DNA of 64,000 nt from Alistipes finegoldii (GCA_963614045.1 CAVEBU010000002.1:676-64675), one strand, 5' to 3'. Positions 8,152 to 57,158 are shown, counted from the stretch's first letter. Made by a program: numbers and translations. Notes: a model not told the origin generated them from the letters alone.

Positions 8152-8271
8152 TAAGAGTCAGGAGTGGGGTACCCCGCAAAATTGAAGATTTTGTGGGGAG
8201 AGGAGGTACCAAGCGAGAATGAGCGTGCTTACTGTCCAAAAGGACTAAGCAAGCGAATTAGCGAAGTTTGT

Positions 8272-10538: not shown

Positions 10539-12374
10539 TTATTTTTCGGATTCGGTTGGAAGCGAGTCGAGTTTTTTCTTGCGTTTATGCAGGATGATTA
10601 AAACGATGATTGTTATCACGACACTGACCCCCATTAAAGCGAGTCCGATTATTTGCGCAGTGGTTAAGTTGCCGTTGTCCAAATTCTCCGATTTGCAATA
10701 GCCCGCTTTGATTGTTTCGGTTTCGCCCTCCGAAACAGAATATTCGATTTTGGACACTCCGTTTAGCGTGCTAATGATTTTTACCGAACTTCCTTTTGCC
10801 AAAACATCTACTTCGTTGAAGCAACTTTTTTCGCTATAGATAGTGGTTTCGGTATTGGTTTTTGCGTTCGGCACGTATTTCGAGTCGGCTACAACCAAAA
10901 TGCTTGAAACGAGCGTACGGCTGTCGATATAACCGATGTATTCGGTGCTATTTTTGGTGTATTTTACTGCAACAAAAGTTGCCCCGTTGCTATCGGCTGG
11001 CAGTATCGGACTTGCGATTATCCCGATTGTGTCGCCGTAATTCAACTGCCCCAAGCTTGCAACATACGTGTTAGTTGCGACCGCTTGGCTGATTGGCATA
11101 ACGAAAATTTTGGTCACGCCCGTAACAACTTTTCCCGCCTTGTTGTCGACGAATTCGCTAGCAATTTCGTTAGCGACCGTTTCGCAGTCGGTTTTTAGGA
11201 TATAACCCAAACTAAAGCCCTCCGAAGTTGCGCTATTATTGTCAAAAACGTAGTAAAATTGCGAATAACTATCATCCAAAAGTATTAATCGCTTGCCGAT
11301 TTCGTACTCAACGGCAGGGGATAGCAGGCTCGGAAATTGATACAGACGGGCGGTTTTAGTCGTTGAAACGGCGGAAATAACCGTCGTGCTTGCGGGAATA
11401 TTAGCAAGTCTGACTTTTGGGGCGATTTGTGAGTAATTTGTAACAAAATTCTCGTTATTTGCGTAAATCTCCGTCACAAACACCTCATTTTCGCTTGTTA
11501 TGTAGTAAATTTTTCCGTTCACGAAGTCGATATCGAAACTAATTGCATTATTAGGGAGCGATGCCGTCGTGGTGTTTGCGGGGTCATCGTTGTATTTAAA
11601 AATCGTGTTTTGATTGCCGTAGTAAATGTTGCCCAAATTGTCCGTATTTAGATATGTGATATTGCTTGAAGATGTCCCCGCTTCCGAAATTTCGTGAGTT
11701 TCTGTGTCAATTTTGTAGATTTTTGTGCCGATTGAGAAGTAAATCACCGAATTATCTTCCGTCACGCAAAATCCACCGCCCGCCTCGAAACTGAGTTTGG
11801 CTTCGTTGTATGTGAGTGTTTCAAAAAGTTCAAGTTGATTTTTGCTATCATTATAATATAGGATATTGTTGCCGAAAATCATATAAGTTATGCCGTCCGC
11901 ACTGCTTGTCAAAGTTTGTTGAGATAGAACGGCTTGGTCGTTCTCAGAATTTTCGATTTTGTACGAACTTAGACTCTGTTTGCTCGGCGCCGAAGTCGAA
12001 GCGTCAACCAAATCGACAAAAAGCGTCGTTGTGGAAACAAAATATTTTTCGCCAAGACTTACAATGTCGTACGGCTGAGTTTTCGTTTTGTCGTCAGTGC
12101 TGTCGGTGTTGTGAATAATCGTGTCGGCGGTGTCGGTATGCTTGATAACTTTTCTGCCGTCCGAATCGATTAGATAAACTGCGTTGTCAAAATAGCGCAC
12201 ACGAGTGAATTTCCCAACAGTGTAATTCTCAATAGCAATCTTAATTTGCGTGGTGTTCTTGAGTTCGTAGGCGGGGAGTTCTGCAAGCAAAATCGGTGCA
12301 ATCAAGCAACTTAGCAAAATCATAATTCCGCCACACAAACTGATTATAAAACCTAAATAAACTCTTTTCTTCAT
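10539..12374 (-). CDS. large surface protein, N-terminal signal/anchor and C-terminal TM anchor, function unknown
   Basis: 611 aa with a hydrophobic N-terminus and a C-terminal TM helix followed by HKRKKK. Repeated ..IYY/..IYK.. strands suggest a beta-propeller, and two C-terminal segments look SH3b-like (weak, by eye). Confidence 0.55.
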   Translation of the reverse strand: MKKRVYLGFIISLCGGIMILLSCLIAPILLAELPAYELKNTTQIKIAIENYTVGKFTRVRYFDNAVYLIDSDGRKVIKHTDTADTIIHNTDSTDDKTKTQPYDIVSLGEKYFVSTTTLFVDLVDASTSAPSKQSLSSYKIENSENDQAVLSQQTLTSSADGITYMIFGNNILYYNDSKNQLELFETLTYNEAKLSFEAGGGFCVTEDNSVIYFSIGTKIYKIDTETHEISEAGTSSSNITYLNTDNLGNIYYGNQNTIFKYNDDPANTTTASLPNNAISFDIDFVNGKIYYITSENEVFVTEIYANNENFVTNYSQIAPKVRLANIPASTTVISAVSTTKTARLYQFPSLLSPAVEYEIGKRLILLDDSYSQFYYVFDNNSATSEGFSLGYILKTDCETVANEIASEFVDNKAGKVVTGVTKIFVMPISQAVATNTYVASLGQLNYGDTIGIIASPILPADSNGATFVAVKYTKNSTEYIGYIDSRTLVSSILVVADSKYVPNAKTNTETTIYSEKSCFNEVDVLAKGSSVKIISTLNGVSKIEYSVSEGETETIKAGYCKSENLDNGNLTTAQIIGLALMGVSVVITIIVLIILHKRKKKLDSLPTESEK

Positions 12375-14128: not shown

Positions 14129-14248
14129 AAAATCTCCTTATAAAATTATAGCAAAACAGTAATTGATTTCAATATGCAATTATTGTTTTTTTTACGAGTT
14201 TTATACAAAAGTTAAACGAATTTTAAGAAAAAAACGAAAAGGTGAAGT

Positions 14249-15706
14249 ATGGATTTGCGAAAAGCGATTTGTGAGTTGGAGCAAGTTGATTTGGAAATCA
14301 AACGGCGAAAGCGGTGCAATAAACTTGCTGAATATAATACGGGCAAAAAAGTCCACTTAAAGCAGTTGGCTTTTCACAAATGCACAAAACGAAATCGCTG
14401 GGTTTTTGGAGGAAATCGAAGTGGCAAGTCGCAGTGCGGTGCGGTGGAAGTTGTTTGGCTTGCGAGAGGGAATCATCCGTATAAGCAAAACAAGTCGAGT
14501 ACGGACGGCTGGGTGGTTAGTTTGAGCCAACAAGTTCAGCGAGATGTGGCGCAACAGAAAATTTTGTACTATCTCAACCCCGACTGGATTGTGGACATTG
14601 TGATGTTGAGCGGGCGCAAAGATTCCGCAAGCAACGGGGTAATTGACTACATTTTGGTGCGTAATGTTTCGGGCGAAATTAGTAAAATCGGGTTCAAAAC
14701 TTGCGACCAAGGGCGTGAAAAATTTCAGGGAACGAGTCTTGATTATGTGTGGTTTGATGAAGAACCGCCGTTTGATATCTATTTGGAGTGTCGAATGCGT
14801 GTTTTGGACAAAGTTGGCGAAATTTTCGGCACGATGACACCGTTGAAGGGTTTGACTTGGGTTTATAACCACATTTATTTGAACGAAAGTGGCGACCCTG
14901 AAATTTGGTACGAAGAAATTGAGTGGGCGGACAATCCGTTTTTGGACGAAAAAGAAATTGCTTCGATGTCGCAAATTCTGTCGCCTGATGATTTGGAAAG
15001 TCGTCGTTACGGAAAATTTGCGAGCTACGGCGGTATGGTTTACAGCGAATTTCAAGAAAATTTGCATGTAATTGAGCCTTTTAACGTCCCGCCCGAGTGG
15101 TTTGACAAAATTAGCATTGATCCAGGTCTGCATAATCCGTTAAGTTGTCACTGGTATGCTGTTGACTATGACGGGAATATTTACGTAATTGCGGAACATT
15201 ACGAAGCTGGCAAAACTTTGGAGTATCACGCCTCAAAAATCATAGAAAAATGCGAAAAATTGGGGTGGAAGAAGGGTTTTAACGGCAAATATGAGTGCTT
15301 AATCGACTCGGCGGCGAATCAAAAGACACTTTCAGGGACGAAAAGCGTGGCGGAATTGTTCCTTGATTACGGAATTAACGTCAATACTTCGGTTAACAAG
15401 GACTTGCTGTCTGGAATTTCTCGGGTTAAAAGCTATTTGTTGAACGTAAATCACGAAACGAAGCTGTATATTTTCAAAAATTGCGTGAATATGATACGAG
15501 AAATCAAGGGGTATTGGTGGGGAAATGAAGATGCGCCAGTGAAAAAAGACGATCACGCAATGGACGATTTGCGTTATTACATAATGTCCCGCCCTGAAAA
15601 TGCGGTGCAAAAATCTCCACCGCTAAATGCGGTTCAGTTGCATAAACAAAAATTGATGAACAGGGTGCGACAACAAAATTTACACAGGAGGTGGTACGGT
15701 GATTGA
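14249..15706 (+). CDS. phage terminase large subunit
   Basis: Walker A GGNRSGKS and Walker B-like LDYVWFDEEP, plus a C-terminal nuclease-type segment ...DDHAMDDLRY; 485 aa. Confidence 0.9.
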   Translation: MDLRKAICELEQVDLEIKRRKRCNKLAEYNTGKKVHLKQLAFHKCTKRNRWVFGGNRSGKSQCGAVEVVWLARGNHPYKQNKSSTDGWVVSLSQQVQRDVAQQKILYYLNPDWIVDIVMLSGRKDSASNGVIDYILVRNVSGEISKIGFKTCDQGREKFQGTSLDYVWFDEEPPFDIYLECRMRVLDKVGEIFGTMTPLKGLTWVYNHIYLNESGDPEIWYEEIEWADNPFLDEKEIASMSQILSPDDLESRRYGKFASYGGMVYSEFQENLHVIEPFNVPPEWFDKISIDPGLHNPLSCHWYAVDYDGNIYVIAEHYEAGKTLEYHASKIIEKCEKLGWKKGFNGKYECLIDSAANQKTLSGTKSVAELFLDYGINVNTSVNKDLLSGISRVKSYLLNVNHETKLYIFKNCVNMIREIKGYWWGNEDAPVKKDDHAMDDLRYYIMSRPENAVQKSPPLNAVQLHKQKLMNRVRQQNLHRRWYGD

Positions 15707-15992
15707 CGAAAAAGATGCTGAAAAACTGACTAAATCGCTATTAAAAAAGGCGATTGGCTATACGGTTGACGAAGTCGTTGAGGAGTATGTAAACAGCGAA
15801 AATGCGGAAAATTTGCACTTAATTAAGCGAAAAATCACAAAAAAACACATTCCGCCCGACATTTCTGCGGTAAAAACGCTCTTGGAAACGACGGAAGACA
15901 ATTTTGAAAAATATCGAAAAATGAGTGATGAAGAATTGCTGAAAAAACGAGACGAGTTGCTAAAACAAATCTCAAAAGGAGGGAGCGGATGA
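15699..15992 (+). CDS. small phage protein, possibly small-terminase-related
   Basis: GTG start overlaps the terL stop, with an AGGAGG RBS. KKHIPPDISAVKTLLE resembles a conserved segment of some TerS proteins (weak). Confidence 0.3.
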   Translation: MIDEKDAEKLTKSLLKKAIGYTVDEVVEEYVNSENAENLHLIKRKITKKHIPPDISAVKTLLETTEDNFEKYRKMSDEELLKKRDELLKQISKGGSG

Positions 15993-16183
15993 AGGTATTT
16001 TTAACAAATAAGCGAGTTAAATGTACTGGGAAGGTCGACTGCAAAAATGAAATTTACTGCAATATCAAATTCAGCAAAGCGAGTATAAATTTGTGCAGGT
16101 CGTGTGCGGTGGAGTTGTACGAAAAGTTAGCCCAGTCGCTTGTGCCGAAATCGGTAAAAAGTAAATTTTATATGCAAAAATAA
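15989..16183 (+). CDS. small Cys-rich (putative zinc-ribbon) phage protein
   Basis: 64 aa; C-x5-C ... C-x2-C pattern; ATGA overlap with the upstream gene. Confidence 0.4.
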   Translation: MKVFLTNKRVKCTGKVDCKNEIYCNIKFSKASINLCRSCAVELYEKLAQSLVPKSVKSKFYMQK

Positions 16184-16201
16184 CGAAAAAGTGAGGTTTT
16201 T

Positions 16202-18124
16202 ATGCAAAAAAATCAAAAAATTGAGCAAAAAAGTAAATCTTCCAAGCAAAAAGAGTTGGTTGCTGAAATTAAGAAAGATTTCGAAAGGCGTCAAGAAGAA
16301 CGCAAGCCGTTCGATGCGCAGTGGCAACTTAATATGAATTTTGTGATGGGAAATCAGTACTGCGGAATCGGGCTAAATGACACTTTGGACGATTTCGACA
16401 AGCAGTACTTTTGGCAAGAGCGTGAAGTTTATAATCATTTGGCGCCGTTGGTTGAGACGAGGCTATCGAAATTGGCAAAAGTTCGTCCGACGATGACGGT
16501 TTTGCCCGCAAGTGCGGACGCTGACGATATAAATAACGCTCATATTTGCAAAAATATACTAAAAGCGGTCGCTGACAAGCTGGAATTGAGCGAACTTGTG
16601 GCGCAAGCGACTCGCTGGAGTGAGATTTGCGGTACGTCTTTCTACAAAATTATTTGGAACGATTCCGCAGGCTCTGTCGTTGGGCTAACGACTTTAGGGC
16701 AGAAAATTTACGAGGGCGATGTGGACATTATGGTTTGTTCGCCGTTCGAAATTTACCCCGATAGTAACACCGCAGAATCTCTCAGTGACTGCCAAAGTGT
16801 CATTCACGCACGTGCTTATGACGTTCGAACTATCAAAAAACACTGGGGTGTGGACATAAAAGGCGAGGATATTGACACCTATAATTTGCAAAATTCGCAA
16901 GTTGCGGGCGGTTTGGGGTACACCTCTCGGTCGGCAAAAGTGTCAAAAACGGTCAAACACAATCACGCAATGGTGATTGAGCGGTACGAAATGCCGAATA
17001 ATGAGTTCCCAAATGGGCGCTTGGTGATAATTGCGGGCGATGAATTGGTTTATGACGGAGATTTGCCATATTTGAATTTGCAAAACGGCGAAAGAGGTTT
17101 CCCGTTTGTTCGCCAAATCAGTACTGGTCAGCCGTCGTTGTTTTGGGGAACGAGTATAGTTGAGCGCTGTATTCCTATTCAAAGAGCATATAATGCGGTA
17201 AAAAATCGCAAACACGAGTTTATGAACAGGCTTTCTATGGGTGTTATGAGTGTGGAGGACGGCTCTGTCGATGTGGATAATTTGGAGGAAGAGGGCTTGA
17301 GTCCTGGCAAAGTCCTGATTTATAGACAAGGTTCTCGAGCTCCTCAAATGCTCACGAGTTCGAGTTTGCCGGTCGATTTTCGTGAAGAAGAAGAGAATTT
17401 GATATCAGAATTCCTTAATATTAGTGGTGTAAACGACCTTTTTGGCACAAATGCCGCCGCTTTGACTCAAATGAGTGGTGTCGCCCTGCAACTTTTGATT
17501 GAACAAGAGGATATGCGTGTGTCGGCGAGTGGCGAGTATATCAAATTTGCTCTAAAGGAAATCGGTCGCCAGATTTTGAGAATTTATAAGCAGTTCATTA
17601 CGACGCAAAGAATCAACAAAATTATCGGTGAAAACGGCTCAAGTGAGCTTTTTTACTGGGACGGAAGCGAAATTACTAGCGATGACGTTACTTTTGAAAC
17701 GGAAAGCGAACTTGGTGAAACTGTGGCGCAAAAGCGCAGTATGGTGTTTGATTTGTACAACGCAGGGCTTCTGCACGACGAAAATGGGAAAATGTCTAAC
17801 GCTATGCGCATAAAAGTTATGGAAATGTTGGGGCTTGGAATTTGGGAAAACGCTATGGACAACAATTCTCTGCAAGTCGAAAAAGCAAAACGAGAAAATA
17901 TTGAATTTGCTGAGGGCAAAGAGCCTGAAGTTCTTGAAATTCACGACCACGATTTGCATATAAATTCGCATATTGCATTTATGCTTGGTGCCGATTTTGA
18001 GAAATTAACAGCAAAGAAAAAGGATATTCGTGAAAAACTTTTGCAACACATTAGAAAGCACAAACAATTTAAAAGACTTACCATTAAAGCGGATAGCCAA
18101 ATGCTCCAAGAGGTAAGCAAATAA
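16202..18124 (+). CDS. phage portal protein
   Basis: 640 aa. The N-terminal FDAQWQLNMNFVMGNQY motif is typical of portal proteins, and the gene sits between terminase and scaffold. Confidence 0.85.
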   Translation: MQKNQKIEQKSKSSKQKELVAEIKKDFERRQEERKPFDAQWQLNMNFVMGNQYCGIGLNDTLDDFDKQYFWQEREVYNHLAPLVETRLSKLAKVRPTMTVLPASADADDINNAHICKNILKAVADKLELSELVAQATRWSEICGTSFYKIIWNDSAGSVVGLTTLGQKIYEGDVDIMVCSPFEIYPDSNTAESLSDCQSVIHARAYDVRTIKKHWGVDIKGEDIDTYNLQNSQVAGGLGYTSRSAKVSKTVKHNHAMVIERYEMPNNEFPNGRLVIIAGDELVYDGDLPYLNLQNGERGFPFVRQISTGQPSLFWGTSIVERCIPIQRAYNAVKNRKHEFMNRLSMGVMSVEDGSVDVDNLEEEGLSPGKVLIYRQGSRAPQMLTSSSLPVDFREEEENLISEFLNISGVNDLFGTNAAALTQMSGVALQLLIEQEDMRVSASGEYIKFALKEIGRQILRIYKQFITTQRINKIIGENGSSELFYWDGSEITSDDVTFETESELGETVAQKRSMVFDLYNAGLLHDENGKMSNAMRIKVMEMLGLGIWENAMDNNSLQVEKAKRENIEFAEGKEPEVLEIHDHDLHINSHIAFMLGADFEKLTAKKKDIREKLLQHIRKHKQFKRLTIKADSQMLQEVSK

Positions 18125-18167
18125 TCAAATTTGCTCGTCAGCAAACAAAAATCTTTAAGGAGTTTTT

Positions 18168-18962
18168 ATGCAAAATAATGATTTTTATACAGAACCAGCA
18201 AGTGAAGAAAATGGACAACAGGAAGAGGTTGACTTGGGTACTTTTAAGTCAGTAAAAACCTTAAAAGAAGCTTACGATTGTTTAAGAAAAGCGTTTACTC
18301 AAAACGCAATGAAGCTAGCGGAATACAAGAAAAATGAAAGCAAAAGTGAAGAAAGTGAAATTTCTGACGCAACTGAAAACTCTTCAAGAATTGATGAAAA
18401 TAGTGAAAAAACTATAAAAAATGATGAAAAAACAGCAAATTTCACTCAAAACAGTGAAACTTTGGAAAATTTGGGAATTAAAGAAACTGCTATTGAGTCA
18501 GACAAGGTGGAAGCCACCCCTGACTTGAATATGGAAAAAGTGGACAAAGATTTCTCTCCCACTTTGACTCGCTTTGAGGGTGAGGATTGGCAAAAGAAAA
18601 TACAAGATTTCTTTGCCGAAAATGAAGATGCGAGGCAATACGCAAAGGAAATTGGTTGCATAATTATGCAAAATGAAAACGTTCGTAATAGTGCTGACCC
18701 TTTGGATAAAGCGTGGATTAAAGTGTTGAAAAATAATTCCACAACTGCTATAGATGATACCAAATTAGAGCAGTATGTTTTGCAAAATGACGCATTAAAA
18801 CAAAAAGTTATTGAGCAATATTTAAAGGAATTACAACACAAAAAGTCTGCTCCCAAAGTAATTTCGGAGCGTGGCGGAACGCAAATGAATGCTACAAAAA
18901 CTCCTCACGCACTCAGTATGGCGGAAGCCAAGGAATTGGCAAAAAAGATTATGATTAAATAG
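18168..18962 (+). CDS. putative capsid scaffolding protein
   Basis: Acidic, low-complexity 264-aa protein located between portal and capsid genes. Confidence 0.5.
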   Translation: MQNNDFYTEPASEENGQQEEVDLGTFKSVKTLKEAYDCLRKAFTQNAMKLAEYKKNESKSEESEISDATENSSRIDENSEKTIKNDEKTANFTQNSETLENLGIKETAIESDKVEATPDLNMEKVDKDFSPTLTRFEGEDWQKKIQDFFAENEDARQYAKEIGCIIMQNENVRNSADPLDKAWIKVLKNNSTTAIDDTKLEQYVLQNDALKQKVIEQYLKELQHKKSAPKVISERGGTQMNATKTPHALSMAEAKELAKKIMIK

Positions 18963-18971
18963 GAGAAAATT

Positions 18972-20147
18972 ATGATTAGTTTAACAACTGCTCAAAATGC
19001 ACTGAAAAATGTGTATTTGGACGTCGTAAGTGAACAGCTGAATTTTCATGTTGACCCGATTTTTGCAATGATTAAGCAAAGTTCGGCTGATGTTTACGGC
19101 AAAAACATTATCAAACTTGTGCCATATGGAATAAATGGCGGTGTTGGTTCGGGAACGGAAGATGGCGCTTTGCCACCTTGCAAAGAGACTCATTATGTGA
19201 ATTTTTCATCAACACTTAAGAATTTATTCGGTACGATTGAAATTACTGACAAGGCTATTCGTGCTTCGGAAAACGACGAGGGCGCTTTTGTGAATTTACT
19301 GTCTGCGGAGATGGAAAGTCTGCTTTCTGCAAGCAAATTCAACCTAGAGCGTATGTTTTACGGCGATTCTACGGGTTCTTTGGCAAATATTACCGAAATT
19401 AGCAACGCTTCTAAATATTTTGTGGCGGACAATGTTGCGCCTTTCGAGACGGGAATGTTGCTTGATTTTTACAATAACGGGGTACTTGACGCAAATATGA
19501 CGGGTGTTCGGGTGGTGACTGTGGATCGCACGAACAAAAAAGTTGTACTTGACAAGGTTTCCACGAATTTTACGACTGCAAATTTGAGCAAATACAAATG
19601 CTATGTTCAAGGTAGTAAAGACAACGAATTGACGGGTTTGGGCGAGATTTTCGGCTCAAGTACCACACTTTACGGGCTAAATCGTGCTGATTATAAGGCT
19701 TTAATGCCATATTCGGCCACTCAGGGCGCTAGTACGACTTTGAGCGAAAGCTTTATTCAAGAGTGTTTGGATGATGTCGAATTGTGTTCGGGCTATCAAC
19801 CTCAAATTATGGTTGCGTCGCCTGACGCTTATTACTCTTTAGTAAAATTGATTATGTCTTACACGAAAAATGTGGAGGCGGTGAACCTAAAATGCGGTGT
19901 TACAAGTGTCGCTTATAATGGAATTCCGCTCACACGCAATAAATATGTCAGCCCTAAAACCGTTTTAATGTTGAATCCTGACTTGTTTACGCTTCACCAA
20001 TTGTGCGATTGGGAGTGGCTAACAAGCAATAATGGTGCAATTCTGACGCAAAAAGAGGGTTATCCTACATATTCGGCAACTTTGGTAAAATATGCGGACC
20101 TAATTTGTAATCGCCCTAACGCACAGGGTAAGATTACTTTGGTCTAA
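18972..20147 (+). CDS. phage major capsid protein, paralog 1
   Basis: 391 aa in the position after the scaffold. The C-terminal ...LHQLCDWEWL...YSATLVKYADLICNRPNAQ pattern is typical of HK97-type MCPs. Confidence 0.8.
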   Translation: MISLTTAQNALKNVYLDVVSEQLNFHVDPIFAMIKQSSADVYGKNIIKLVPYGINGGVGSGTEDGALPPCKETHYVNFSSTLKNLFGTIEITDKAIRASENDEGAFVNLLSAEMESLLSASKFNLERMFYGDSTGSLANITEISNASKYFVADNVAPFETGMLLDFYNNGVLDANMTGVRVVTVDRTNKKVVLDKVSTNFTTANLSKYKCYVQGSKDNELTGLGEIFGSSTTLYGLNRADYKALMPYSATQGASTTLSESFIQECLDDVELCSGYQPQIMVASPDAYYSLVKLIMSYTKNVEAVNLKCGVTSVAYNGIPLTRNKYVSPKTVLMLNPDLFTLHQLCDWEWLTSNNGAILTQKEGYPTYSATLVKYADLICNRPNAQGKITLV

Positions 20148-20161
20148 GAGGGGGTAATTAT

Positions 20162-21340
20162 ATGATTTCATTAAAAACAGCGGACAGCGCTCTCAAAAAT
20201 GTGTATTTGGAAGTGCTAAAGAACCAGTTTGACTACAATGTTGACCCATTTTTTAGTCAAATTGAGAAAACAAGCAACGATATTTCGGGCGGAACGGTTT
20301 GCAAAATAGTTTCGCCAGGTGTAAATGGCGGAATTGGTGCTGGTGCTGAAACTGGCAGTTTGCCGTCTGCGGTTGGGGCAAGTTATGTGAAACTTACCGC
20401 TCCGCTTAAGAATTTGTATGCGCAAATCGAGATTTCAGACAAGGCTTTGCGTGCTTCAGCAAACGATTCGGGTGCTTTTGTGAACCTTTTGAATGCTGAA
20501 ATGGATAATTTGATAGAATCGAGCAAGTTCAATATGCGTCGAATGATTTACGGCGACGGCTCAACAAGTATGGGCGAAGTTTTGGATTATACTTTAAACA
20601 GTCCTACATATAAAGTGGAAAATATTGAAAGATATATCGTCGGAATGCGAGTAAACGGCACAATTGACGCTCTAACTGTGACAAATATGAACGATTTGGA
20701 TGTTTTGGACGTCGATTATGTGAACAGCAAAATAACTGTGGAAAGCAGGGGAGTTCTGACTTCTGATGTTGAAGACGACGAGGTTTTTGAAATTTGTTTA
20801 ACCAACAATTACCACCCAATTACTGGTATTGGCAAGCATTTTTCGGTGAAAAACGGCACAATTTTTGGTATTGCAAAGGAAGAAAATGAATTTATGATGC
20901 CAAATTGGGTCAGCGTTGCTAGTTCAAAATTTGATTACATTTCGCTTTTGCAAGCGATTGATATGACAAGAATGGACAAGGGTGCTAACACTGATTTTAT
21001 CGTAACCAGCTTCGATTTTCGCCGTACAGTGCAAAAATTGCTGAAAAATAACGCAATTAACTGCGATTTGCAGGTGTTGGAGGGTGGCTTCCGCACGTTG
21101 AGTATTGACGGCGTTCCTCTATATGCTAATAGATTTATACCAGAGAGGACGGCTTATTTGCTTGATTCAAGTTCGTTTGCGTTACATCAATTATGTGATT
21201 GGTCGTGGTTGACAAACGATAAAGGCGAAATTTTACGACAAAAAGAGGGTTATGCGGCACATAATGCGACTTTGGTTAAATATTGCGAGCTAATTCCTAA
21301 CAAAATGAGTTCTAACACAAAAATTTTGTTAACTCAATAA
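20162..21340 (+). CDS. phage major capsid protein, paralog 2
   Basis: 392 aa, colinear with 18972-20147. About half the positions are identical in the segments I aligned by eye (MISL.TA..ALKNVYL.V...; LHQLCDW.WLT...G.IL.QKEGY....ATLVKY). Confidence 0.8.
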   Translation: MISLKTADSALKNVYLEVLKNQFDYNVDPFFSQIEKTSNDISGGTVCKIVSPGVNGGIGAGAETGSLPSAVGASYVKLTAPLKNLYAQIEISDKALRASANDSGAFVNLLNAEMDNLIESSKFNMRRMIYGDGSTSMGEVLDYTLNSPTYKVENIERYIVGMRVNGTIDALTVTNMNDLDVLDVDYVNSKITVESRGVLTSDVEDDEVFEICLTNNYHPITGIGKHFSVKNGTIFGIAKEENEFMMPNWVSVASSKFDYISLLQAIDMTRMDKGANTDFIVTSFDFRRTVQKLLKNNAINCDLQVLEGGFRTLSIDGVPLYANRFIPERTAYLLDSSSFALHQLCDWSWLTNDKGEILRQKEGYAAHNATLVKYCELIPNKMSSNTKILLTQ

Positions 21341-21357
21341 CAAAAAGTGAGGTTTTT

Positions 21358-21738
21358 ATGGCGTTAATCAAGATTTTTAGCGATGTTTTTGATATCGCTC
21401 AGCGAGTAAAAGAGATAGATTCGGGCTATTTTATTGTTTATAATACAAAAAAACACAGGTATGAAGTGCATAATAGTCACCAATTCGGGTCAACTTTCTG
21501 TATAGTTTGCGATAGCGGGTTGAATAGCACTGTAATTACAAAGTTAAGAAAGTCAAAAATCGAGAACATAGACAAGATTTTGCGTGAAATTGATGAAAAT
21601 AACGCAAAAAATGAGCAAAATGTAGCAAAAAAGCTGAAAAATGAGGCTTCTTTTAAGCTAAAGGAAATGTTTGATTACGCAAAGAAACGGGAGTCCGATA
21701 GTGATTTTAGCGAAAGTTATAAGACTATTTGGGCGTAA
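21358..21738 (+). CDS. phage protein, unknown function
   Basis: 126 aa. Its translation-initiation region is identical to that of the portal gene (AAAAAGTGAGGTTTTTATG). Confidence 0.5.
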   Translation: MALIKIFSDVFDIAQRVKEIDSGYFIVYNTKKHRYEVHNSHQFGSTFCIVCDSGLNSTVITKLRKSKIENIDKILREIDENNAKNEQNVAKKLKNEASFKLKEMFDYAKKRESDSDFSESYKTIWA

Positions 21739-21753
21739 ATAGGAGGTTAATAA

Positions 21754-22326
21754 ATGACTGTTTTAGATGTTGTAAAATTGGTTGCGCAATATATTGGTGA
21801 TGCAGATTTGCTGTCAACGACGACACTTGGCGGGCAAACGTCACCGACTGAACAGCAAACAAGCAAAATAAACACGTTAGTTAGTTGTGTTAATGATACT
21901 GTGCAAAATTTGGCGATTATGTATTTCCCACTCAAAAAAGAGGAAGTTGTGACCAGTTCAAACGGTTCGTATTCGTTTACTCTATTTTCAAAGCCGTTGC
22001 TTGATATTCTCAAAATTGTGGACAATCGGCTTAAATTTTCGGTAGATTATGCTATGTTTCCTGATTATTTTGAGTCAAAAGCGGGCAGTTTGTTCGTTTC
22101 ATACACATATTTGCCGAGCGAAGTTAGTTCGATGTCCTCAAAATTAGAGGTTGTGGAGAATAAAGTTACTGCCAGGATGATTGCGTTGGGTGTTGCGAGT
22201 AGATATTTTTTGATTGTTGGAATGTATCAAGACGCAAACAACTGGAACGAAATGTTTGAGCGTGCGATTTTGGTGGCTCAAAGAAGAAAAGACAACATAG
22301 TTCTCAAAAAGAGAAGGTGGTTATAG
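21754..22326 (+). CDS. phage structural protein, possible head-tail connector
   Basis: 190 aa; the call rests only on position after the capsid genes. Confidence 0.3.
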   Translation: MTVLDVVKLVAQYIGDADLLSTTTLGGQTSPTEQQTSKINTLVSCVNDTVQNLAIMYFPLKKEEVVTSSNGSYSFTLFSKPLLDILKIVDNRLKFSVDYAMFPDYFESKAGSLFVSYTYLPSEVSSMSSKLEVVENKVTARMIALGVASRYFLIVGMYQDANNWNEMFERAILVAQRRKDNIVLKKRRWL

Positions 22327-23811
22327 GTGTTTTATAAGCAAAAAATACCTCAAAATACCAAATCTAACGTGAAAATTCAGCTAACTGACTTTTCGAAAGG
22401 AATTAACACACAAATTACACAAAATCTTTTGCCATTGAATTATGCTGTAAATAGTTACAATTTTGACTTCAATAAGCGCAGTTTGGCGACAGGACTTGGG
22501 ATTAAGGAGTTGTCGATTCCTTATAGTGAGACGCTTTCAAAGTCTTTCGTGCCGTCCGATTCGGTACATCAGCTTTACAGATTTTGGCAATATACGAAAT
22601 ACGACGAAACGTCAGACAGCTATATTCCGTTGCTAATGTTGTATGGCGATGACGAATTTTTGTATTATGCGAGGCTAAAAACTAGCCAAACGAACTTCAA
22701 TTTGCTAAATGTGACATTTCCGGATATTCCGAACGGTCTTAACTATAGAACGGACGACGGCGACTGCTTTTATGCGTGCGGTGATAGTAAAATTGTGAAA
22801 TTTTCGGCTTCGACGACGGAAACTTTCAGTGATAGCGTACCTAGAATTACCTCAATAGCGCTTCACGCAGGCAGACTTTTTGCTACAGTTAACGGCGACC
22901 AAAATGTTGTTTGGTTTAGTGATGACCTTGACCCAACTAACTGGAAAGTTAGCAGTTTTGAGGGCGGTTACATCGAATTAACGGGCGAAAGGGGAGTTTG
23001 CAAAAAGGTTATTGAAGCAAATAATTTGCTTTACGTGATTCGGGAGTACGGTATCAGTAAAATTTCTGGCTGGGGCTTGCAGGACGATTTTGTTGTCAAA
23101 AATATGTATTTAACGACGGGAAAATTGTATCACGAAACTGCAAGATTATGCGGTCGAATTGTGATAATGCTTTGTACCGACGGACTGTATTATTTCGACG
23201 GAAGCAGTATGAATAAGATAAATTTGGGCATTGAAGAAATGTTTGCTGGAGTCGACAATAGCAGTGCTTTTGGGGCTTTTTTGGACGGAAAATACTATTT
23301 AGCGTGCAAAATGAACTATAATGACGGGGTTTTTGTGGGGTGTGAGAGCAATTCTTATGTAAATAACACCTTGCTAGAACTCGACCTCAACACCTTCGAT
23401 ATCAACATTTTGCGGGGCGTTGATGTGGTTTATATGGACGGTATAAGATTTAATAATTATACAAAATTAGGTATAATATTAAACGGCACAAACGGGAATA
23501 AATTATATGAATTGACGCACACTGGCGAAGTGAACGGAGTGGCAACGTCGAAATATTGGTGTTCACCGCTGACGGATATGGGGTATCCAAATTATCGCAA
23601 GGCGATTAAGAGTTTGACGATAAATACAAAGACGGATATAACTGTGATTTTTGATGCTGACGGCAAGAAGTATAGTTTCGCTGTCAAGGGAAGTGATGTT
23701 CCGTCGAAAATTCCGATTAATATTTTTTGCTCAAAATTCAGCGTGGCATTTTCTTGTGCGACAAAAGCGTGTGAAATTTCCGACCCGCTAATTCAAGTTG
23801 CGTTGGTGTAG
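22327..23811 (+). CDS. phage structural protein, unknown (possible short-tail/neck component)
   Basis: 494 aa with a GTG start abutting the upstream stop. Repeated beta-strand-like motifs; no family recognised. Confidence 0.3.
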   Translation: MFYKQKIPQNTKSNVKIQLTDFSKGINTQITQNLLPLNYAVNSYNFDFNKRSLATGLGIKELSIPYSETLSKSFVPSDSVHQLYRFWQYTKYDETSDSYIPLLMLYGDDEFLYYARLKTSQTNFNLLNVTFPDIPNGLNYRTDDGDCFYACGDSKIVKFSASTTETFSDSVPRITSIALHAGRLFATVNGDQNVVWFSDDLDPTNWKVSSFEGGYIELTGERGVCKKVIEANNLLYVIREYGISKISGWGLQDDFVVKNMYLTTGKLYHETARLCGRIVIMLCTDGLYYFDGSSMNKINLGIEEMFAGVDNSSAFGAFLDGKYYLACKMNYNDGVFVGCESNSYVNNTLLELDLNTFDINILRGVDVVYMDGIRFNNYTKLGIILNGTNGNKLYELTHTGEVNGVATSKYWCSPLTDMGYPNYRKAIKSLTINTKTDITVIFDADGKKYSFAVKGSDVPSKIPINIFCSKFSVAFSCATKACEISDPLIQVALV

Positions 23812-23818
23812 GTAGTAT

Positions 23819-24253
23819 ATGGATTATATATTAAATGATTTGATTGATAGGGTTGATATGCTTGAGAATCTGGTGTATCAATTGAAAAAAGATTGTCTAA
23901 ATATGCCGTTTAGTCAGTTTGTAAAGCAAGATTTAACTCAAACTTTTACAATTTCGGGAGCGAATTCTTTTGAAATTGGGAGCTTGAGCGGTGTAGGTAG
24001 TGCTGAAATTTATATTTTATGTAAAATTAGTTGTTCGGTTGAAACTGAGGTGTTCGTCGATATTGGGAATTCTGTGGAGTGTAGCAAGAAAGTTGCTTCG
24101 AACAGCCAAAATTCGATATGCACATTTGCAATTAAAACTAGCGATATAGGGAGCGTTAAATTGAGAATTGAAAATAGTTCGATTACGGGGTCTATAAGCG
24201 AAATTAGTGTAATTGTGAGCAAAAATGCGACATTTAGTAGTGTTTTTGCATAA
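23819..24253 (+). CDS. phage protein, unknown function
   Basis: 144-aa ORF with tight spacing to the upstream gene. Confidence 0.4.
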   Translation: MDYILNDLIDRVDMLENLVYQLKKDCLNMPFSQFVKQDLTQTFTISGANSFEIGSLSGVGSAEIYILCKISCSVETEVFVDIGNSVECSKKVASNSQNSICTFAIKTSDIGSVKLRIENSSITGSISEISVIVSKNATFSSVFA

Positions 24254-24261
24254 AATTGGGT

Positions 24262-24295
24262 AGTACTATGCACTGCATAGTACCTGCATAGTACT
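24262..24295. repeat. TGCATAGTACC motif: one inverted unit followed by two direct units (palindromic core)
   Basis: AGTACTATGCA-C-TGCATAGTACC-TGCATAGTACT, about 100 bp upstream of the 24399 ATG. Confidence 0.85.
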
Positions 24296-24398
24296 GTTTA
24301 AAGGTCGTGAAATATGGTAAAATATAGTAAATTATATGGCAAAATTTTATTAAAACAGAAAAGGTTTGAAATATATTTAAAGAGTAAAGGAGGAAATT

Positions 24399-25289
24399 AT
24401 GTCAACGGAAAATATCTTAGATGAAACTATGAAAAATGAACAAAAAATGTCAAAATCCACTGAAAATTTTGATATTGAAGGGATTAAAGTTGCTTTGGAA
24501 GGGATTGAAAAGAAGTATGAGGCGGAATATCCGAGCTTGAATCCTGATGAAAGCACTATGCCTCAGTATAAGGATAATTCTTCAAAGAGTTATGAGGAGA
24601 TTTCACAAGAAGCAAAAGAGGCTTTGAGTGAGTATCAAATGTCAAATATTGGGCAAATTCAGGACGAATATGCTGAAAAAATGCAAGAATTGAACCTAAA
24701 AGAGCAAAAAATCAATATGGAATCCGATTATGACACCGAAGATTTGAAAGCTGAAGCGCAGTTGGAGTTGGAGAAAAAGAAAGCCGACCTAATTTCGCAA
24801 GGAATTGAACGCAGTAGTATTGCGCAAAATTCCAAGCAGGCAGTAGTTTCGCAATATGACAGCGAGTTAATAAGGGCGATTGAGGAAAAGCAAATAGCGA
24901 TTTCGGAAATTGAACTCAAACGCTCAATGCTTCAAAACGATATGAACGCCGCTTTGGAGAAATTCGACATCGCTTACGCTTCAAAATTGGAGAGTAAAAT
25001 TGAGGAACTGTCCAAAAAATACGACGAGGAAATGATTGCGCTTGAAAAGTACAATGCGAAAATTTCTGAACTTCGTAACGCAAGAAATCAAGAGTGGGCG
25101 AAGTGGGTGAAGGAAAAAACTTCCGAGATTGATGCCACAAAATCTCGCAAAAAAGTGGAATATTTGGTAGATGTAATCAAAAATTTGTCAAAAGAAGAGG
25201 CGCAAGCATTAATGCGTGACCAAGAAATCATCGATTCTTTGGGTGATTATTATCAAATCGTCCTCGATTTTGCAAACCGCAGAAGGTAG
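24399..25289 (+). CDS. coiled-coil phage protein, unknown function
   Basis: 296 aa, E/K/Q-rich heptad-like sequence, AGGAGG RBS. Confidence 0.45.
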   Translation: MSTENILDETMKNEQKMSKSTENFDIEGIKVALEGIEKKYEAEYPSLNPDESTMPQYKDNSSKSYEEISQEAKEALSEYQMSNIGQIQDEYAEKMQELNLKEQKINMESDYDTEDLKAEAQLELEKKKADLISQGIERSSIAQNSKQAVVSQYDSELIRAIEEKQIAISEIELKRSMLQNDMNAALEKFDIAYASKLESKIEELSKKYDEEMIALEKYNAKISELRNARNQEWAKWVKEKTSEIDATKSRKKVEYLVDVIKNLSKEEAQALMRDQEIIDSLGDYYQIVLDFANRRR

Positions 25290-25292
25290 TTT

Positions 25293-25793
25293 ATGAACGA
25301 TTTATTAAAAGACAAACTAAAATCTTATAGCTTTTGGGTGTCGTTAGCAAGTGCGATTTTACTTTTGGTGCAAACCATCGGCAGACCGTTGGGTTTGGTA
25401 ATTGACGAATCGACTTATATGTCAATTGTAAATAGCGTTTTGGGTGTGTTTGTCGTGCTGGGAATTATTAGTCATCCCGCACAAAATTTGTTAAAAACTA
25501 GCACAACACAACATGAAGAAATTACTGAAGATGAGAAAACAAATTCAAAAGATGAAAATGCTAAAAATGATGACTATGTTGCAAAAAATAGCGGGAATAC
25601 TGCAGAAAATTGCGGGATAGTCGCAAAAAATTGCACTTCATCATCCGAAAATGAGGGGCTAGTGATAGATTCTAAAAGCGGTTGCGATGGCGGTGAAATT
25701 GATACTTCTAATAATGAGAATAGCGACTTAAAAGACTTGTCGAGCGAACGAATTCAGCAAGCAAAACAAGATTTTATCAACTTATATAAGTAG
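25293..25793 (+). CDS. phage holin-like protein with long C-terminal tail
   Basis: Two TM helices lie in the first ~65 aa (FWVSLASAILLLVQTIG, VLGVFVVLGIISHP), arranged as in phi-LC3/SPP1-type holins. It is the last gene of the cluster. Confidence 0.6.
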   Translation: MNDLLKDKLKSYSFWVSLASAILLLVQTIGRPLGLVIDESTYMSIVNSVLGVFVVLGIISHPAQNLLKTSTTQHEEITEDEKTNSKDENAKNDDYVAKNSGNTAENCGIVAKNCTSSSENEGLVIDSKSGCDGGEIDTSNNENSDLKDLSSERIQQAKQDFINLYK

Positions 25794-25800
25794 TTGAATT

Positions 25801-30987: not shown

Positions 30988-31848
30988 ATGGAGAACGAAT
31001 TTGAAAACAAACAAAACAAGCTTGATTTGGGCGAATTTGAAAGTGTTGCCGACGAGCTTGATTTGAACGGAATTACGCAAGATGATGTGAGCGAAGTCAG
31101 TGAAATGGTCTTTTATTTTGAAAATCACGAAGGCCCGCTCGACGTACTTTGGAGGCTAGTCAAGTCCACAAAACTTGACATTAAGGCTGTGAAAATTGCT
31201 GACATCACTAGCCAATACCTCGATTACATTCACAATCTTAAGGACATTGATATGGAAAGTATGAGCTGGTTTATTAGGGAAGCGTCGAAGCTTTTGGAAG
31301 TTAAATCGAATTCGCTTTTGCCGAAGCCTGAAGCTCAAGACGAGGCGGACGAAGTGGATTTGGAAGAACTTTACAAGCGCCGTATGGAAATGTACCGACT
31401 TTTCAAGGAAACGAGCGAAACTTTGGGGGAGCGAGAAAATACTGACCGCTTTTATAAAGAGCCTGAAAAGTCCGCAAACGACTACCGAATTGTGCTGAAA
31501 AATATGAATATGCAAAATTTGGTGGACGCTTTCAGCAAGCTTTTGGTGAAAGTTGAACAAAAAAATGCGCCGATTGTGGAACGAAAAGTTCAAAAGGATC
31601 GCTTCACTGTGCGGGAGTGCTTCGACAATATTCAGACGAAATTAGACACGAACAAAAAAGTGCGTTTCGACGAACTTTTTGGGGCGGATTTCACTAAAAG
31701 CGAGATTATTAACACGTTTTTGGCGCTGTTGGAGTTGCTGAAAATTCAATATGCGAGAGTTTTGCAGGCGGATTTGTTCGGCGAAATTGATATTGAGAAA
31801 AAAGAGGGGGAAACAGTAAATGCTGAAGAACTTACCGAGTATAATTGA
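30988..31848 (+). CDS. scpA: segregation and condensation protein A
   Basis: HEGPLDVLWRLVKSTKLDIKAVKIADITSQYLDYI matches the ScpA N-terminal signature; scpB follows. Confidence 0.85.
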   Translation: MENEFENKQNKLDLGEFESVADELDLNGITQDDVSEVSEMVFYFENHEGPLDVLWRLVKSTKLDIKAVKIADITSQYLDYIHNLKDIDMESMSWFIREASKLLEVKSNSLLPKPEAQDEADEVDLEELYKRRMEMYRLFKETSETLGERENTDRFYKEPEKSANDYRIVLKNMNMQNLVDAFSKLLVKVEQKNAPIVERKVQKDRFTVRECFDNIQTKLDTNKKVRFDELFGADFTKSEIINTFLALLELLKIQYARVLQADLFGEIDIEKKEGETVNAEELTEYN

Positions 31849-32479
31849 GGGAATTATGTTTGTCGCTGGCGCAGGCGTTAGCGTGACGGATATTGCGGAA
31901 AAATTGGGCGTGACTGAGGACGAAGTTAAAGCGGGCGTGTATGTTTTGCAAAAGAAATACGACGAAACTAGCGGAATTCAAATCATTACTTATAAGGGGA
32001 AAATTCAGTTCTGCACCAATCCCGAATTCGCCGACCCAATTAGTCTGGTGCTGAATCCGATTAAAGAGCGGGCGCTGACAAAAACCGCTCTTGAAACTGT
32101 GGCAATTATCGCTTATCAGCAACCGATTACTCGGCTTGAAGTTGAAAATATTCGTGGGGTTGGGTGCGATTATGCGATTCAGCTATTGCTTGCGCACAAC
32201 CTTATTGAAGTCGTTGGGCGGAAAGACGTTATCGGAAAACCGCTACTTTTCGGTACGACGGACGAATTTTTGAAGAGGTTCGAACTGCAGAGCTTGGACG
32301 ATTTGCCGAAATACGAGGAACTTATGGCGCAAATTAAAGTTCTCAACTCTGGCGCTGACAACGACTCAATCTATAACGAATTCGATATTGACGAGAATGC
32401 GGACAGCGAGGGCGAAACTGTTATTGCGGACGGAGAAACGGAAGCCGAAGCGTCGGAAAAATGTGTTGCTTGCGGTTAA
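31820..32479 (+). CDS. scpB: segregation and condensation protein B
   Basis: IIEGIMFVAGAGVSV..., ETVAIIAYQQPITRLEVENIRGV and GKPLLFGTTDEFLKRF motifs; overlaps the scpA end. Confidence 0.85.
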   Translation: MLKNLPSIIEGIMFVAGAGVSVTDIAEKLGVTEDEVKAGVYVLQKKYDETSGIQIITYKGKIQFCTNPEFADPISLVLNPIKERALTKTALETVAIIAYQQPITRLEVENIRGVGCDYAIQLLLAHNLIEVVGRKDVIGKPLLFGTTDEFLKRFELQSLDDLPKYEELMAQIKVLNSGADNDSIYNEFDIDENADSEGETVIADGETEAEASEKCVACG

Positions 32480-32487: not shown

Positions 32488-32574
32488 GGGGGCTTGGTGC
32501 ATACGCTGAAAGCGTATGCCGTCCTGCTTCGCAGGACGGGGTGCGTTCGGCACGAACGCACGCACCAAGCCCCC
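32488..32574 (+). other. GC-rich four-way-junction element (13-bp closing stem + three perfect hairpins)
   Basis: GGGGGCTTGGTGC (32488-32500) pairs with GCACCAAGCCCCC (32562-32574). Inside are ATACGC-TGAAA-GCGTAT, CGTCCTGC-TTC-GCAGGACG and GTGCGTTCG-GCA-CGAACGCAC. Confidence 0.7.
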
Positions 32575-32610
32575 CGTGTCCTTCGAAGTGACATTGTTGT
32601 TGTTTTGGTA

Positions 32611-32656
32611 AAATTCTAGACAGTTGCGTATTTTTGCCTGCCTAGAATTTTTTATT
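32611..32656 (+). terminator. probable intrinsic terminator of scpAB
   Basis: AAATTCTAG.CAG / CTG.CTAGAATTT stem followed by TTTTATTT. Confidence 0.5.
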
Positions 32657-32770
32657 TACGCTTCTTTTGTTTGTAAATTCCTCAAAATATTTGTCGTAAA
32701 AATACTTAAAATTACTAAATAAAAAAATTTAAAAAAATTAAAAATTTTTTAAAAAACTTGTCGAAATCGC

Positions 32771-32795
32771 TTGACAATATATATATATATATATA
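32771..32795 (+). promoter_or_regulatory. promoter-like element with (TA) repeat in the spacer
   Basis: TTGACA (32771-32776) is followed by ATATATATATATATATA (32777-32793), and TATAAT (32790-32795) overlaps the end of that tract. The spacer is only 13 nt as sequenced. Confidence 0.4.
32777..32793. repeat. dinucleotide (AT)8A microsatellite
   Basis: Read directly from the sequence. Confidence 0.95.
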
Positions 32796-32831
32796 ATTGA
32801 TATGAGGCTTTTAAAAAAGGAGATAAAAAAA

Positions 32832-33671
32832 ATGACAAAAGCTATTAAACAAACAATTTTGGCGTTATTTGCGGTTTTGTTGTTTGTGTCGTGTGCGTTT
32901 ATGTTTTCGGCTTGTGGTAAGGACGACAACAAATCTTCAAAGGACAACACTTCAACAACTGATGTTCAGTTGACAAATGAGCAGTGTGCGACTGCTTGTA
33001 CTGCGGTATCGACAATGTTAAAGGAGCAGTACAACAAAGGTGCTTCAAGCGAGAGTTCTTCAGAGACAAAAACTGCTGACACACTTTCGCTAGTTCCAGA
33101 TAGTAAGTTGGGTAATATTGATACTGTTGATTATAGTGGTGTGGGGAGATTCCTCGCTTTTGGTATTTCAAGTGCTGCGTTTGATTCTTCGGTTTTGGTG
33201 TGTAGGGGTGAATACGCAAGAAACACTGTTGTTGAGGGAGACATAAAAGTTATCAACGACACGAGTGCTAAGGCGAAGCTTACAATTGTAGGTCTCAATA
33301 GCATTATCAAGGGTGAATGTGTTGTTACTGTGATGGGTAAGGAGAGCTACGCTTACTATGTAAACTACTCAGTTAGGTATGACTTCACAAAGGGAAGTCT
33401 TGAAGAATATGAATTGTATGTGTTTGACAACAATGCTGAAAGTCGTGGCGAATTGTTGTATGTTGTAAATTACGACAAGACAAAAGGTATGCGTGGGTAC
33501 ATAGAATCTTCAGCAACAAATGACAATAATCCTCAAACTTCGATTACAACAACAGCAAAAACATCTGCTTCTACTTTCTACGCAAAGACGGCTGTAAAAT
33601 CTGACTACGACTTTACGGAATGCTTTGAGAGATATTTGTCTTCAACTTCCTCATCTCAAGCGGTTGCTTAG
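32832..33671 (+). CDS. lipoprotein, function unknown
   Basis: ATG 32832 lies after AGGAG. The signal peptide has a lipobox ...FMFSAC-GKDD. Confidence 0.7.
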   Translation: MTKAIKQTILALFAVLLFVSCAFMFSACGKDDNKSSKDNTSTTDVQLTNEQCATACTAVSTMLKEQYNKGASSESSSETKTADTLSLVPDSKLGNIDTVDYSGVGRFLAFGISSAAFDSSVLVCRGEYARNTVVEGDIKVINDTSAKAKLTIVGLNSIIKGECVVTVMGKESYAYYVNYSVRYDFTKGSLEEYELYVFDNNAESRGELLYVVNYDKTKGMRGYIESSATNDNNPQTSITTTAKTSASTFYAKTAVKSDYDFTECFERYLSSTSSSQAVA

Positions 33672-57149: not shown

Positions 57150-57158
57150 GAGAAAAAT

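Follow-up and report, generated by a model that had tools for sequence, protein, structure and literature searches.

A GC-rich nested palindrome downstream of scpB, probably a member of a lineage-restricted intergenic DNA repeat family in uncultured gut Clostridia

Results

The scpAB locus carries a palindrome that folds as a four-way junction

We analyzed a 64-kb stretch of DNA (hereafter the window) in which the scpA and scpB genes overlap and scpB ends with a TAA stop codon at 32477-32479 (Table 1). Eight bases downstream of this codon (GTAGGGGC) begins an 87-nt nested palindrome, referred to here as the element, which was found by sequence reading and RNA folding to form a four-way junction on either strand. 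All of its 38 pairs are Watson-Crick pairs (26 GC and 12 AT, with no G-U pair and no mismatch), and the only unpaired bases at the junction are G32518 and G32540. These results confirmed several features described in a first-pass annotation of this DNA, i.e., a perfect 13-bp closing stem around three perfect hairpins, almost no unpaired bases at the junction, and a start directly after scpB, the identity of which rests on the Pfam match. The hairpin dimensions given there (stems of 6-9 bp and loops of 3-5 nt) required correction, to stems of 7-9 bp with loops that are all 3 nt long.

The minimum free energy of the element was -66.8 kcal/mol on the plus strand, whereas dinucleotide shuffles gave a mean of -33.4 +/- 3.4 (z -9.9) and none of 200 equaled the observed value; the minus strand gave -65.6 kcal/mol (z -9.9). 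The GC content is 66.7%, as against 38.2% for the window, so that the element is indeed strikingly GC-rich for this genome, as had been remarked. A scan for GC content and folding showed it to be the sole GC-rich, strongly folding segment within the 64 kb.

Table 1. Features of the scpAB locus and of the downstream element (window coordinates)
Feature	Position	Strand	Basis or remark
scpA, overlaps scpB	30988-31848		Upstream gene; Pfam PF02616, E 1.1e-20
scpB, gene upstream of the element	31820-32479	+	Pfam PF04079, E 1.3e-48
Element, whole nested palindrome	32488-32574	.	Folding; covariance model R1 matches the element alone in the window
Left terminal inverted repeat, 5' closing-stem arm, GGGGGCTTGGTGC	32488-32500	.	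Perfect complement of 32562-32574 (13 bp); family-conserved part
Hairpin module 1, ATACGCT-GAA-AGCGTAT, 7 bp	32501-32517 (32501-32507/32511-32517)	.	Unrelated perfect hairpin instead in sister species
Hairpin module 2, CCGTCCTGC-TTC-GCAGGACGG, 9 bp	32519-32539 (32519-32527/32531-32539)	.	A32536 to G (T.G mismatch) in two same-species contigs
Hairpin module 3, GTGCGTTCG-GCA-CGAACGCAC, 9 bp	32541-32561 (32541-32549/32553-32561)	.	Loop TGC in contig L001 of the same species; same sequence in sister species L003
Right terminal inverted repeat, 3' closing-stem arm, GCACCAAGCCCCC	32562-32574	.	Complement of the left arm
Terminator-like AT-rich hairpin, then T-run	32610-32658	+	Inverted-repeat scan and fold

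The 3' flank of the element is CGTGTCCTTCG, which contains no T-run, and a scan with a terminator consensus called no terminator between 31800 and 33000. An intrinsic terminator was rejected on these grounds, and the earlier description of the element as too elaborate for a terminator holds. In the hairpin downstream of the element, an AT-rich stem of 14 bp carries a 14-nt loop (-13.9 kcal/mol), and TTTTTTATTT follows. This hairpin had been annotated as a conventional terminator at 32611-32656; because the consensus scan gave no call, we refer to it as terminator-like rather than as a proven terminator. It likely represents the end of the scpAB transcript. Farther downstream, a (TA)n tract (32770-32807) lies between a TTGACA box and a -10-like region, upstream of a lipoprotein-like ORF (32802-33671). 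In contig L001, from the same species, this tract is shorter by one TA unit (17 nt, vs 19 nt in the window), a difference that may reflect phase-variable promoter spacing.

The element matches no known RNA family and is the only copy in the window

A search of the window with Rfam at gathering thresholds yielded six tRNAs only, all away from the element. A permissive Rfam search on the element itself produced noise (best 12.9-17.5 bits, E 4-10), and five related loci or other members (see below) gave nothing at E<=1; hence, no Rfam family was matched by the element or its relatives. ARAGORN found no tRNA at the element, and with both programs negative the observation that its dimensions are unlike those of a tRNA holds.

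No second copy was detected in the window by a closing-stem search that permitted mismatches, by an inverted-repeat scan, by the GC/fold scan, by a descriptor of a closing stem plus three hairpins, or by the covariance model R1, which was built from window-type copies and run with filters off. Blastn of the window element, of the copy in a relative (L086, below) and of high-GC elements (below) against phage and plasmid collections gave zero matches, and three pattern scans of viral contigs gave one chance match inside a GC-rich phage ORF and no other. A metagenome scan with the shared closing-stem pattern revealed no new window-type copy among the matches listed; this pattern is too permissive for GC-rich genomes, and the matches listed were mostly unrelated-looking high-GC palindromes and other long hairpins. 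Finally, a blastn-short search of all elements against all collected DNA found no isolated modules except for one solitary hairpin in L213.

Several other identities were considered and rejected, namely, a tRNA-like element, a dif/Xer site, a DGR hairpin and a group II intron fragment. A retron noncoding RNA was rejected on account of its missing RT and the short length of the element, a ribozyme for the absence of internal loops, and an IS200/IS605 end for the absence of a conserved target tetranucleotide.

Copies in close relatives occupy several intergenic sites

The ScpB homologues of the window are from uncultured Clostridia, and several of the MAG titles carry a Christensenella-like label. 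We compared the DNA downstream of scpB in 80 species representatives and in the contigs that encode the closest ScpB proteins. Among the 80 representatives, an element downstream of scpB was present only in the closest ones, and within this closest group (ScpB core identity of about 87-99%) the architecture recurs while the sequence differs. In contigs of the window's own species (L001 and L002) and in two sister species (L003/L004 and L210), the element is located directly 3' of the scpB stop codon. In L005 (copy A), L085 and L213, it lies downstream of scpB but beyond an intrinsic terminator. A second copy in L005 (copy B) is found ~700 bp past copy A, across a 155-aa gene; it lies between divergent genes, upstream of the one on the minus strand. 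In L086, the element has an 18-bp middle hairpin and begins 19 nt 3' of the spoIVA stop codon, and there is none after scpB; spoIVA, sought in the 64-kb window as an empty-site comparison for this copy, is absent there. An element after scpB is absent in seven close relatives (L007, L086, L087, L088, L211, L212 and L215). The comparison proposed in the first-pass annotation showed the element downstream of scpB in some relatives and not in other close ones, and further copies were found in relatives, at several sites, but not elsewhere in the 64-kb window.

There are four types of site, i.e., the scpB stop, the scpB terminator, spoIVA, and the region upstream of the 155-aa gene. In the ScpB tree, the copies located right after the stop codon form one clade, and those located after a terminator fall in another. 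All copies are intergenic, with 67-73% GC in contigs of 36-48% GC, and their density is low: one in the 64-kb window, two in 19 kb of L005 and one in 20 kb of L086. The term repeat family, as used here, is based on about eight loci in about six species, drawn from genome fragments. The element was recovered from independent assemblies or samples (GCA_963661315.1 and SRR19415678), and homologues were found in five other species (NCBI, JGI, ENA and Logan). The short-read contigs L002 and L085 end inside the element, and a T run (TTTTT) directly follows it in L003 only.

The two L005 copies are about 90% identical over the element, and the 100-nt flanks on each side are unrelated. Because the similarity stops at the terminal inverted repeats, we place the ends of the repeated unit there. 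By inspection, no flanking direct repeats or target-site duplications were present around any of the eight copies, and no common target motif was visible in their flanks. No transposase, RAYT or recombinase was found by Pfam in 51 of the 53 window ORFs of at least 100 aa, nor among the genes adjoining the other copies.

The arms are conserved, and the hairpins are exchanged as modules

The conserved part of the family is the terminal inverted repeat, which is 10-14 bp long and has a consensus of about GGGSGGNTTGSYGY. Besides the window arm (Table 1), the arm sequences are GGGCGTGGTGC in L003, GGGCGGGTTGGCGC in L210, GGCGGCTTGCCGC in L005, GGGCGGATTGCCGT in L213 and GGGGGCGTGG in L086. An alignment of five arm types showed standard pairs in 65 of 65 cells; both partners had changed in six of the 14 pairs, and in no pair had a single partner changed by itself. 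The covariation score was reached by 0 of 500 shuffles, and registers that had been slid were only 35-44% paired. Since a MAFFT alignment of all eight elements was structurally inconsistent, covariation was counted on the arms only, and the pair statistics given below were taken from individual folds.

Comparison of the window with L003, in which scpB is 85% identical at the DNA level, showed that hairpin 3 and the 3' arm are identical at 34 of 35 positions and are thus more conserved between these two species than the coding sequence. In contrast, hairpins 1 and 2 could not be aligned, and L003 has unrelated hairpins in their place that are still perfect. The stem of hairpin 1 is common to L003 and L210, with different loops, and another hairpin 1 stem is common to L005 and L213, in which hairpins 2 and 3 differ. 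The inner hairpins change by modular replacement and not by stepwise compensatory substitution. Nearly all copies have GCA/TGC as the loop of hairpin 3, a hint of some constraint.

The minimum free energy folds of the eight elements contained 218 GC, 72 AT and 4 GU pairs on the plus strand and 218, 70 and 2, respectively, on the minus strand. Single-base stem imperfections appear on the plus strand as T.G in hairpin 2 of L001/L002 and in hairpin 3 of L210, and as A.C in hairpin 3 of L005 copy B; they favor neither strand. Within the species of the window, the hairpin 3 loop occurs in both orientations, GCA in the window and L002 vs TGC in L001, and the center of the palindromic 3' arm of L005 is TT in copy A vs AA in copy B. 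Such flips leave the duplex palindrome unchanged and alter the RNA. The L005 copies scored higher with the window-type covariance model in the opposite orientation (42.1 vs 22.6 bits for copy B), and orientation relative to scpB may therefore not be conserved. Differences that fell inside the approximately 90 nt of the element numbered two of seven between the window and L001 and three of 55 between the window and L002, a mild enrichment for between-strain differences.

Discussion

A palindromic intergenic repeat is the favored reading

The element belongs to a family with members at several unrelated intergenic sites and with presence or absence among close relatives. We lean toward the interpretation, drawn from comparison of the sequences, that it is one copy of a lineage-restricted, GC-rich, noncoding, nested-palindrome intergenic repeat of the REP/BIME/REPIN or MITE kind. 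In this reading the family is restricted to a few closely related uncultured Clostridia of the gut, and the element is not a new functional RNA. A REP/BIME- or MITE-like repeat acting at the DNA level is favored because the pairing is strand-symmetric and the position relative to terminators is inconsistent, and a repeat is preferred over a dedicated structured RNA because the unit is GC-rich and bounded by terminal inverted repeats, lies at dispersed sites, varies in presence, and undergoes loop flips and module swapping. The suggestion of a mobile GC cluster or REP-like element, one of the candidates in the first-pass annotation, is thereby borne out in part: the copies are non-orthologous and vary in presence or absence, a duplicated pair ends at the terminal inverted repeats, the palindromes are strand-symmetric, and loops are flipped.

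Under this interpretation, the palindromes would be kept at the DNA level, both by gene conversion among the copies and by extrusion of hairpins or cruciforms accompanied by intrastrand template switching. The element would spread, or would have spread, as a non-autonomous unit, via a putative trans-acting enzyme or by recombination, and as DNA it could act as a local rearrangement hot spot. The main effect of the window copy on the host would be incidental: this copy would be transcribed at the end of the scpAB mRNA, before the terminator-like hairpin, and the predicted -67 kcal/mol four-way junction, likely a very stable 3' structure on this mRNA, could, in the manner of REP elements, block 3'-to-5' exonucleases and pause transcription or insulate it.

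Alternative explanations

The main rival, which we consider possible though unlikely, is that the element is a cis-acting structured RNA of the scpAB 3' UTR, inherited vertically under compensatory evolution, in which the junction protects the mRNA from 3' exonucleases or joins a compound terminator or insulator. The proposal of a small structured RNA or 3'UTR stabilizer had been made in the first-pass annotation, and it stands insofar as the window copy does sit between the scpB stop and the terminator-like hairpin. Position and orientation are the same in the sister species L003 and L210, and the same post-scpB position in three sister species is equally expected of a conserved cis-acting 3'UTR element; the architecture is kept despite changed sequence, with compensatory pairs; hairpin 3 and the arm are strongly conserved; two of the three single-base stem imperfections are T.G on the plus strand; GAA/GAAA-type triloops are common; and REP-type elements are reported to stabilize upstream transcripts (PMC3184786). 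However, this reading is weakened because the L005A, L085 and L213 copies lie beyond intrinsic terminators and the L005B copy lies between divergent genes, i.e., not in a 3' UTR, and because pairing has no strand bias (4 vs 2 G-U pairs in about 290), the closing stem being without one-sided changes. Furthermore, close relatives manage without the element, the hairpin 3 mismatch of L005B is tolerated on the other strand only, the hairpin 3 loop flip within one species alters the RNA and not the duplex, and Rfam gave no match. The replacement of whole hairpins at 85% coding identity is also far faster than stepwise compensatory evolution.

A quite unlikely, more far-reaching alternative is that the family represents a new class of mobile or self-maintaining prokaryotic DNA that works as a folded four-way junction, in which the conserved terminal inverted repeat would be recognized by a putative structure-specific enzyme, perfect hairpin "cassettes" would be made, or exchanged among copies, by hairpin-templated synthesis, and relatives with arms of the GGCGGCTTGCCGCC type would exist across distant phyla. 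In a weaker variant, the scpB-linked copy would have acquired a role in scpAB expression or in the handling of the chromosome, either as a site or as an RNA with the shape of a junction. More doubtful again is a DNA site that a protein uses in folded form, be it a recombination or attachment site for mobile elements that insert downstream of scpB, a target of junction-binding or junction-resolving enzymes, or a site of SMC-ScpAB chromosome organization. The near-perfect junction, which can branch-migrate by 1-2 bp, the conserved terminal inverted repeat, and the status of the scpB-downstream region as a hot spot of rearrangement and integration, with a different next gene in nearly every species, are consistent with such a role. 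But no recombinase or integrase adjoins any copy, the spoIVA copy is unconnected with scpB and in this clade the element does not always lie close to that gene, neither direct repeats nor att-like duplications were found, integron core sites (RYYYAAC/GTTRRRY) and extrahelical bases are absent, and phage, plasmid and viral collections gave no match. The protein-binding cruciform or Holliday-junction mimic of the first-pass annotation accordingly gained no specific support. Lastly, a chance palindrome or an assembly artefact can be given almost no credence: short-read assemblers tend to mis-join at palindromes and contigs do break in the element, but none of the 200 shuffles folded as well, five other species carry homologous elements, and the recovery of the element from independent assemblies and samples refutes this explanation.

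Comparison with known repeat systems

The favored assignment to the intergenic repeats is one of kind, as at least one defining feature (tag, target duplication or cognate transposase) of each of the REP/REPIN, MITE and bcr1 repeats was not found. Most REPs, which are GC-rich stem-loops, lie downstream of genes; they affect mRNA stability and serve as sites of recombination and IS insertion (PMC3184786). REP/BIME sequences are palindromic, fold on both strands, and persist at orthologous sites yet are dispersed (PMC3184786, PMC3733652). The individual REP is a single imperfect hairpin of 20-40 bp with an unpaired GTAG or CGTC tag, is linked to RAYT, and is present in hundreds of copies; the hosts given are mainly Proteobacteria and include no low-GC Clostridia lineage (PMC3733652). 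Like REP/BIME/REPIN sequences, the element is extragenic, GC-rich, short, palindromic, near genes and associated with rearrangement, and the L005-type arm GGCGGC-TT-GCCGCC is itself palindromic, so that such a copy resembles the two inverted REPs around a spacer that make up a REPIN. Unlike REPs, the element has no consistent tag: GTAG is located just upstream of the window copy, but not of the L003, L210, L005A/B, L086 and L213 copies, and CGTC at the foot of hairpin 2 is likewise not conserved in other copies, so that both were rejected as REP tags. Its stems are perfect, three different hairpins lie inside one closing stem, its density is low (one in 64 kb, as counted in genome fragments), and RAYT (Y1_Tnp) was unseen in 51 of 53 window ORFs or beside copies.

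The closest architectural analogue, as compared by description, is the bcr1 repeat of the Bacillus cereus group, whose transcript is described as "cruciform-like", with a closing stem, independent stem-loops and compensatory changes (PMC3184786). It is about 155 bp long and has two stem-loops, 5-bp flanking direct repeats and a distribution that is not conserved between strains (PMC3184786). Both are Firmicute intergenic repeats, and the closing stem, the independent stem-loops and the compensatory changes are shared. The element differs from bcr1 in its length of 87-100 bp, its three stem-loops, the absence of direct repeats and the swapping of whole modules, and bcr1 does not exceed its host in GC content as the element does. 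MITEs (Neisseria Correia/NEMIS, RUP and enterobacterial RU) are small, noncoding and bounded by terminal inverted repeats, their conserved part, and lie at multiple intergenic sites, with stable folds, target duplications and presence/absence polymorphism (PMC3184786). The element is similar to these in its terminal inverted repeats, conserved across copies, its non-orthologous sites, and its presence or absence between relatives, and it differs in lacking a target-site duplication and in its interior of perfect palindromes. MITEs derive from an identifiable IS with the same terminal inverted repeats; no such IS was found here, and phage, plasmid and viral collections gave no match to the element.

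Mitochondrial GC clusters, double-hairpin elements and repetitive hairpin-forming elements are likewise GC-rich, fast-evolving short elements that invade AT-rich intergenic DNA (PMC4478555, PMC2800124). They are organellar, have other sequences and only one or two hairpins, and have no known phylogenetic link with the element. Integron attC sites resemble the element in that structure is conserved over sequence, in their location after ORF stops and in their use as a folded single strand, and the L005 gene bracketed by two copies recalls a cassette. However, the R/L core boxes (GTTRRRY), unpaired spacer, extrahelical bases, IntI and arrays of attC are all absent here, and attC was rejected for the perfect stems, the lack of GTTRRRY/RYYYAAC at the ends, and the lack of an integrase in the window (Pfam, 51 of 53 ORFs).

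If the repeat interpretation is true, the element would be a structurally unusual addition to the short list of REP/MITE-type repeats of Firmicutes, in that its junction encloses three hairpins and its perfect modules can be swapped; its host is an uncultured relative of Christensenella from the gut. Should a dedicated enzyme recognize the junction, this would be a new mobilization mechanism. For annotation, it matters that short-read assemblies break at the element and that synteny breaks there as well. The element also offers a clean natural case in which palindromes stay perfect while their sequence turns over, which bears on hairpin-templated repair and gene conversion in bacterial intergenic DNA, and a warning that "covariation" in perfectly symmetric palindromes is no evidence for a functional RNA.

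Other observations in the window and in related contigs

In L005, the first 10 nt of element A, GGGGCGGCTT (10787-10796), also occur directly after the scpB stop codon (10638-10647), 140 nt upstream of element A, and a terminator and a solitary hairpin lie between the two occurrences. The upstream GGGGCGGCTT may be a remnant arm or reflect insertion into an older copy. In L213 (4010-4030), and also in L214, the solitary hairpin CACTTTCG-GCA-CGAAAGTG is located between the scpB terminator and the element; that of L213 has an 11-mer, TTCGGCACGAA, in common with hairpin 3 of the window element, a sequence match which hints that single hairpin modules may also exist alone.

The region 3' of scpB is a hot spot for integration. 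A tRNA and a rolling-circle Rep gene (PF23343) follow scpB in L211 (4400-5800), and in L088 (3700-13200) scpB is followed by a tRNA and an island that encodes a UvrD-like helicase, HTH regulators and a large serine recombinase. A conserved gene of 147-158 aa lies next to scpB (L005 10942-11409, L213 4399-4875 and L086 11021-11464). Its orientation in L005 and L213 is opposite to that in L086, and palindromic elements mark one edge of the inverted segment in L213 and both edges in L005.

Elsewhere in the window, downstream of tRNA-Lys(CTT) (8029-8104) and of a terminator-like hairpin that follows it, a stretch of 18 nt (8144-8161) repeats the anticodon arm of this tRNA (8056-8073) perfectly in inverted orientation. 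Upstream of scpAB, a phage-like cluster (~14200-25800) encodes a large terminase (14249-15706), a P22-like portal (16202-18124), DUF7934 and a holin (25293-25793). Its distal part is syntenic in several species (also L002, L085 and L086), which suggests, from gene order, a conserved prophage remnant or a GTA-like cluster and not a recent prophage. Genes for a D12-class adenine methyltransferase and a DpnII-type endonuclease (55593-58016) lie at the edge of an island of 27% GC (56000-64000), as against about 38-45% in the rest of the window, and this island was likely acquired horizontally.

Abundant among the matches listed from the metagenome scan was a REPIN-like family in contigs of 55-72% GC (L090, L113, L118, L120, L137, L139, L143, L152, L160, L191, L202 and L208). 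It has palindromic GGCGGCTTGCCGCC arms (extended form TGGAGTGCGGCGGCTTGCCGCCGCTTT) that enclose one to three hairpins, with GC(TT/AA)GC centers, and is often found at contig ends; its arms match the L005-type arms at 13 of 14 bases, which may reflect common descent, recognition by one shared enzyme, or chance. In low-GC contigs (about 38%; L156, L178, L109, L133, L183, L163 and L201), an inverted repeat of 22 bp, GCGGCTTGGCGCAAGTGGGGGG, has a single mismatch that recurs and surrounds a variable, unstructured center of 25-30 nt. In L201, two inverted copies of this repeat (176-249 and 960-1032) are located beside three tandem tyrosine recombinases and a gene with a colicin-E5 domain, and the GCGGCTTGGCGCAAGTGGGGGG repeats may constitute a recombination-site family.
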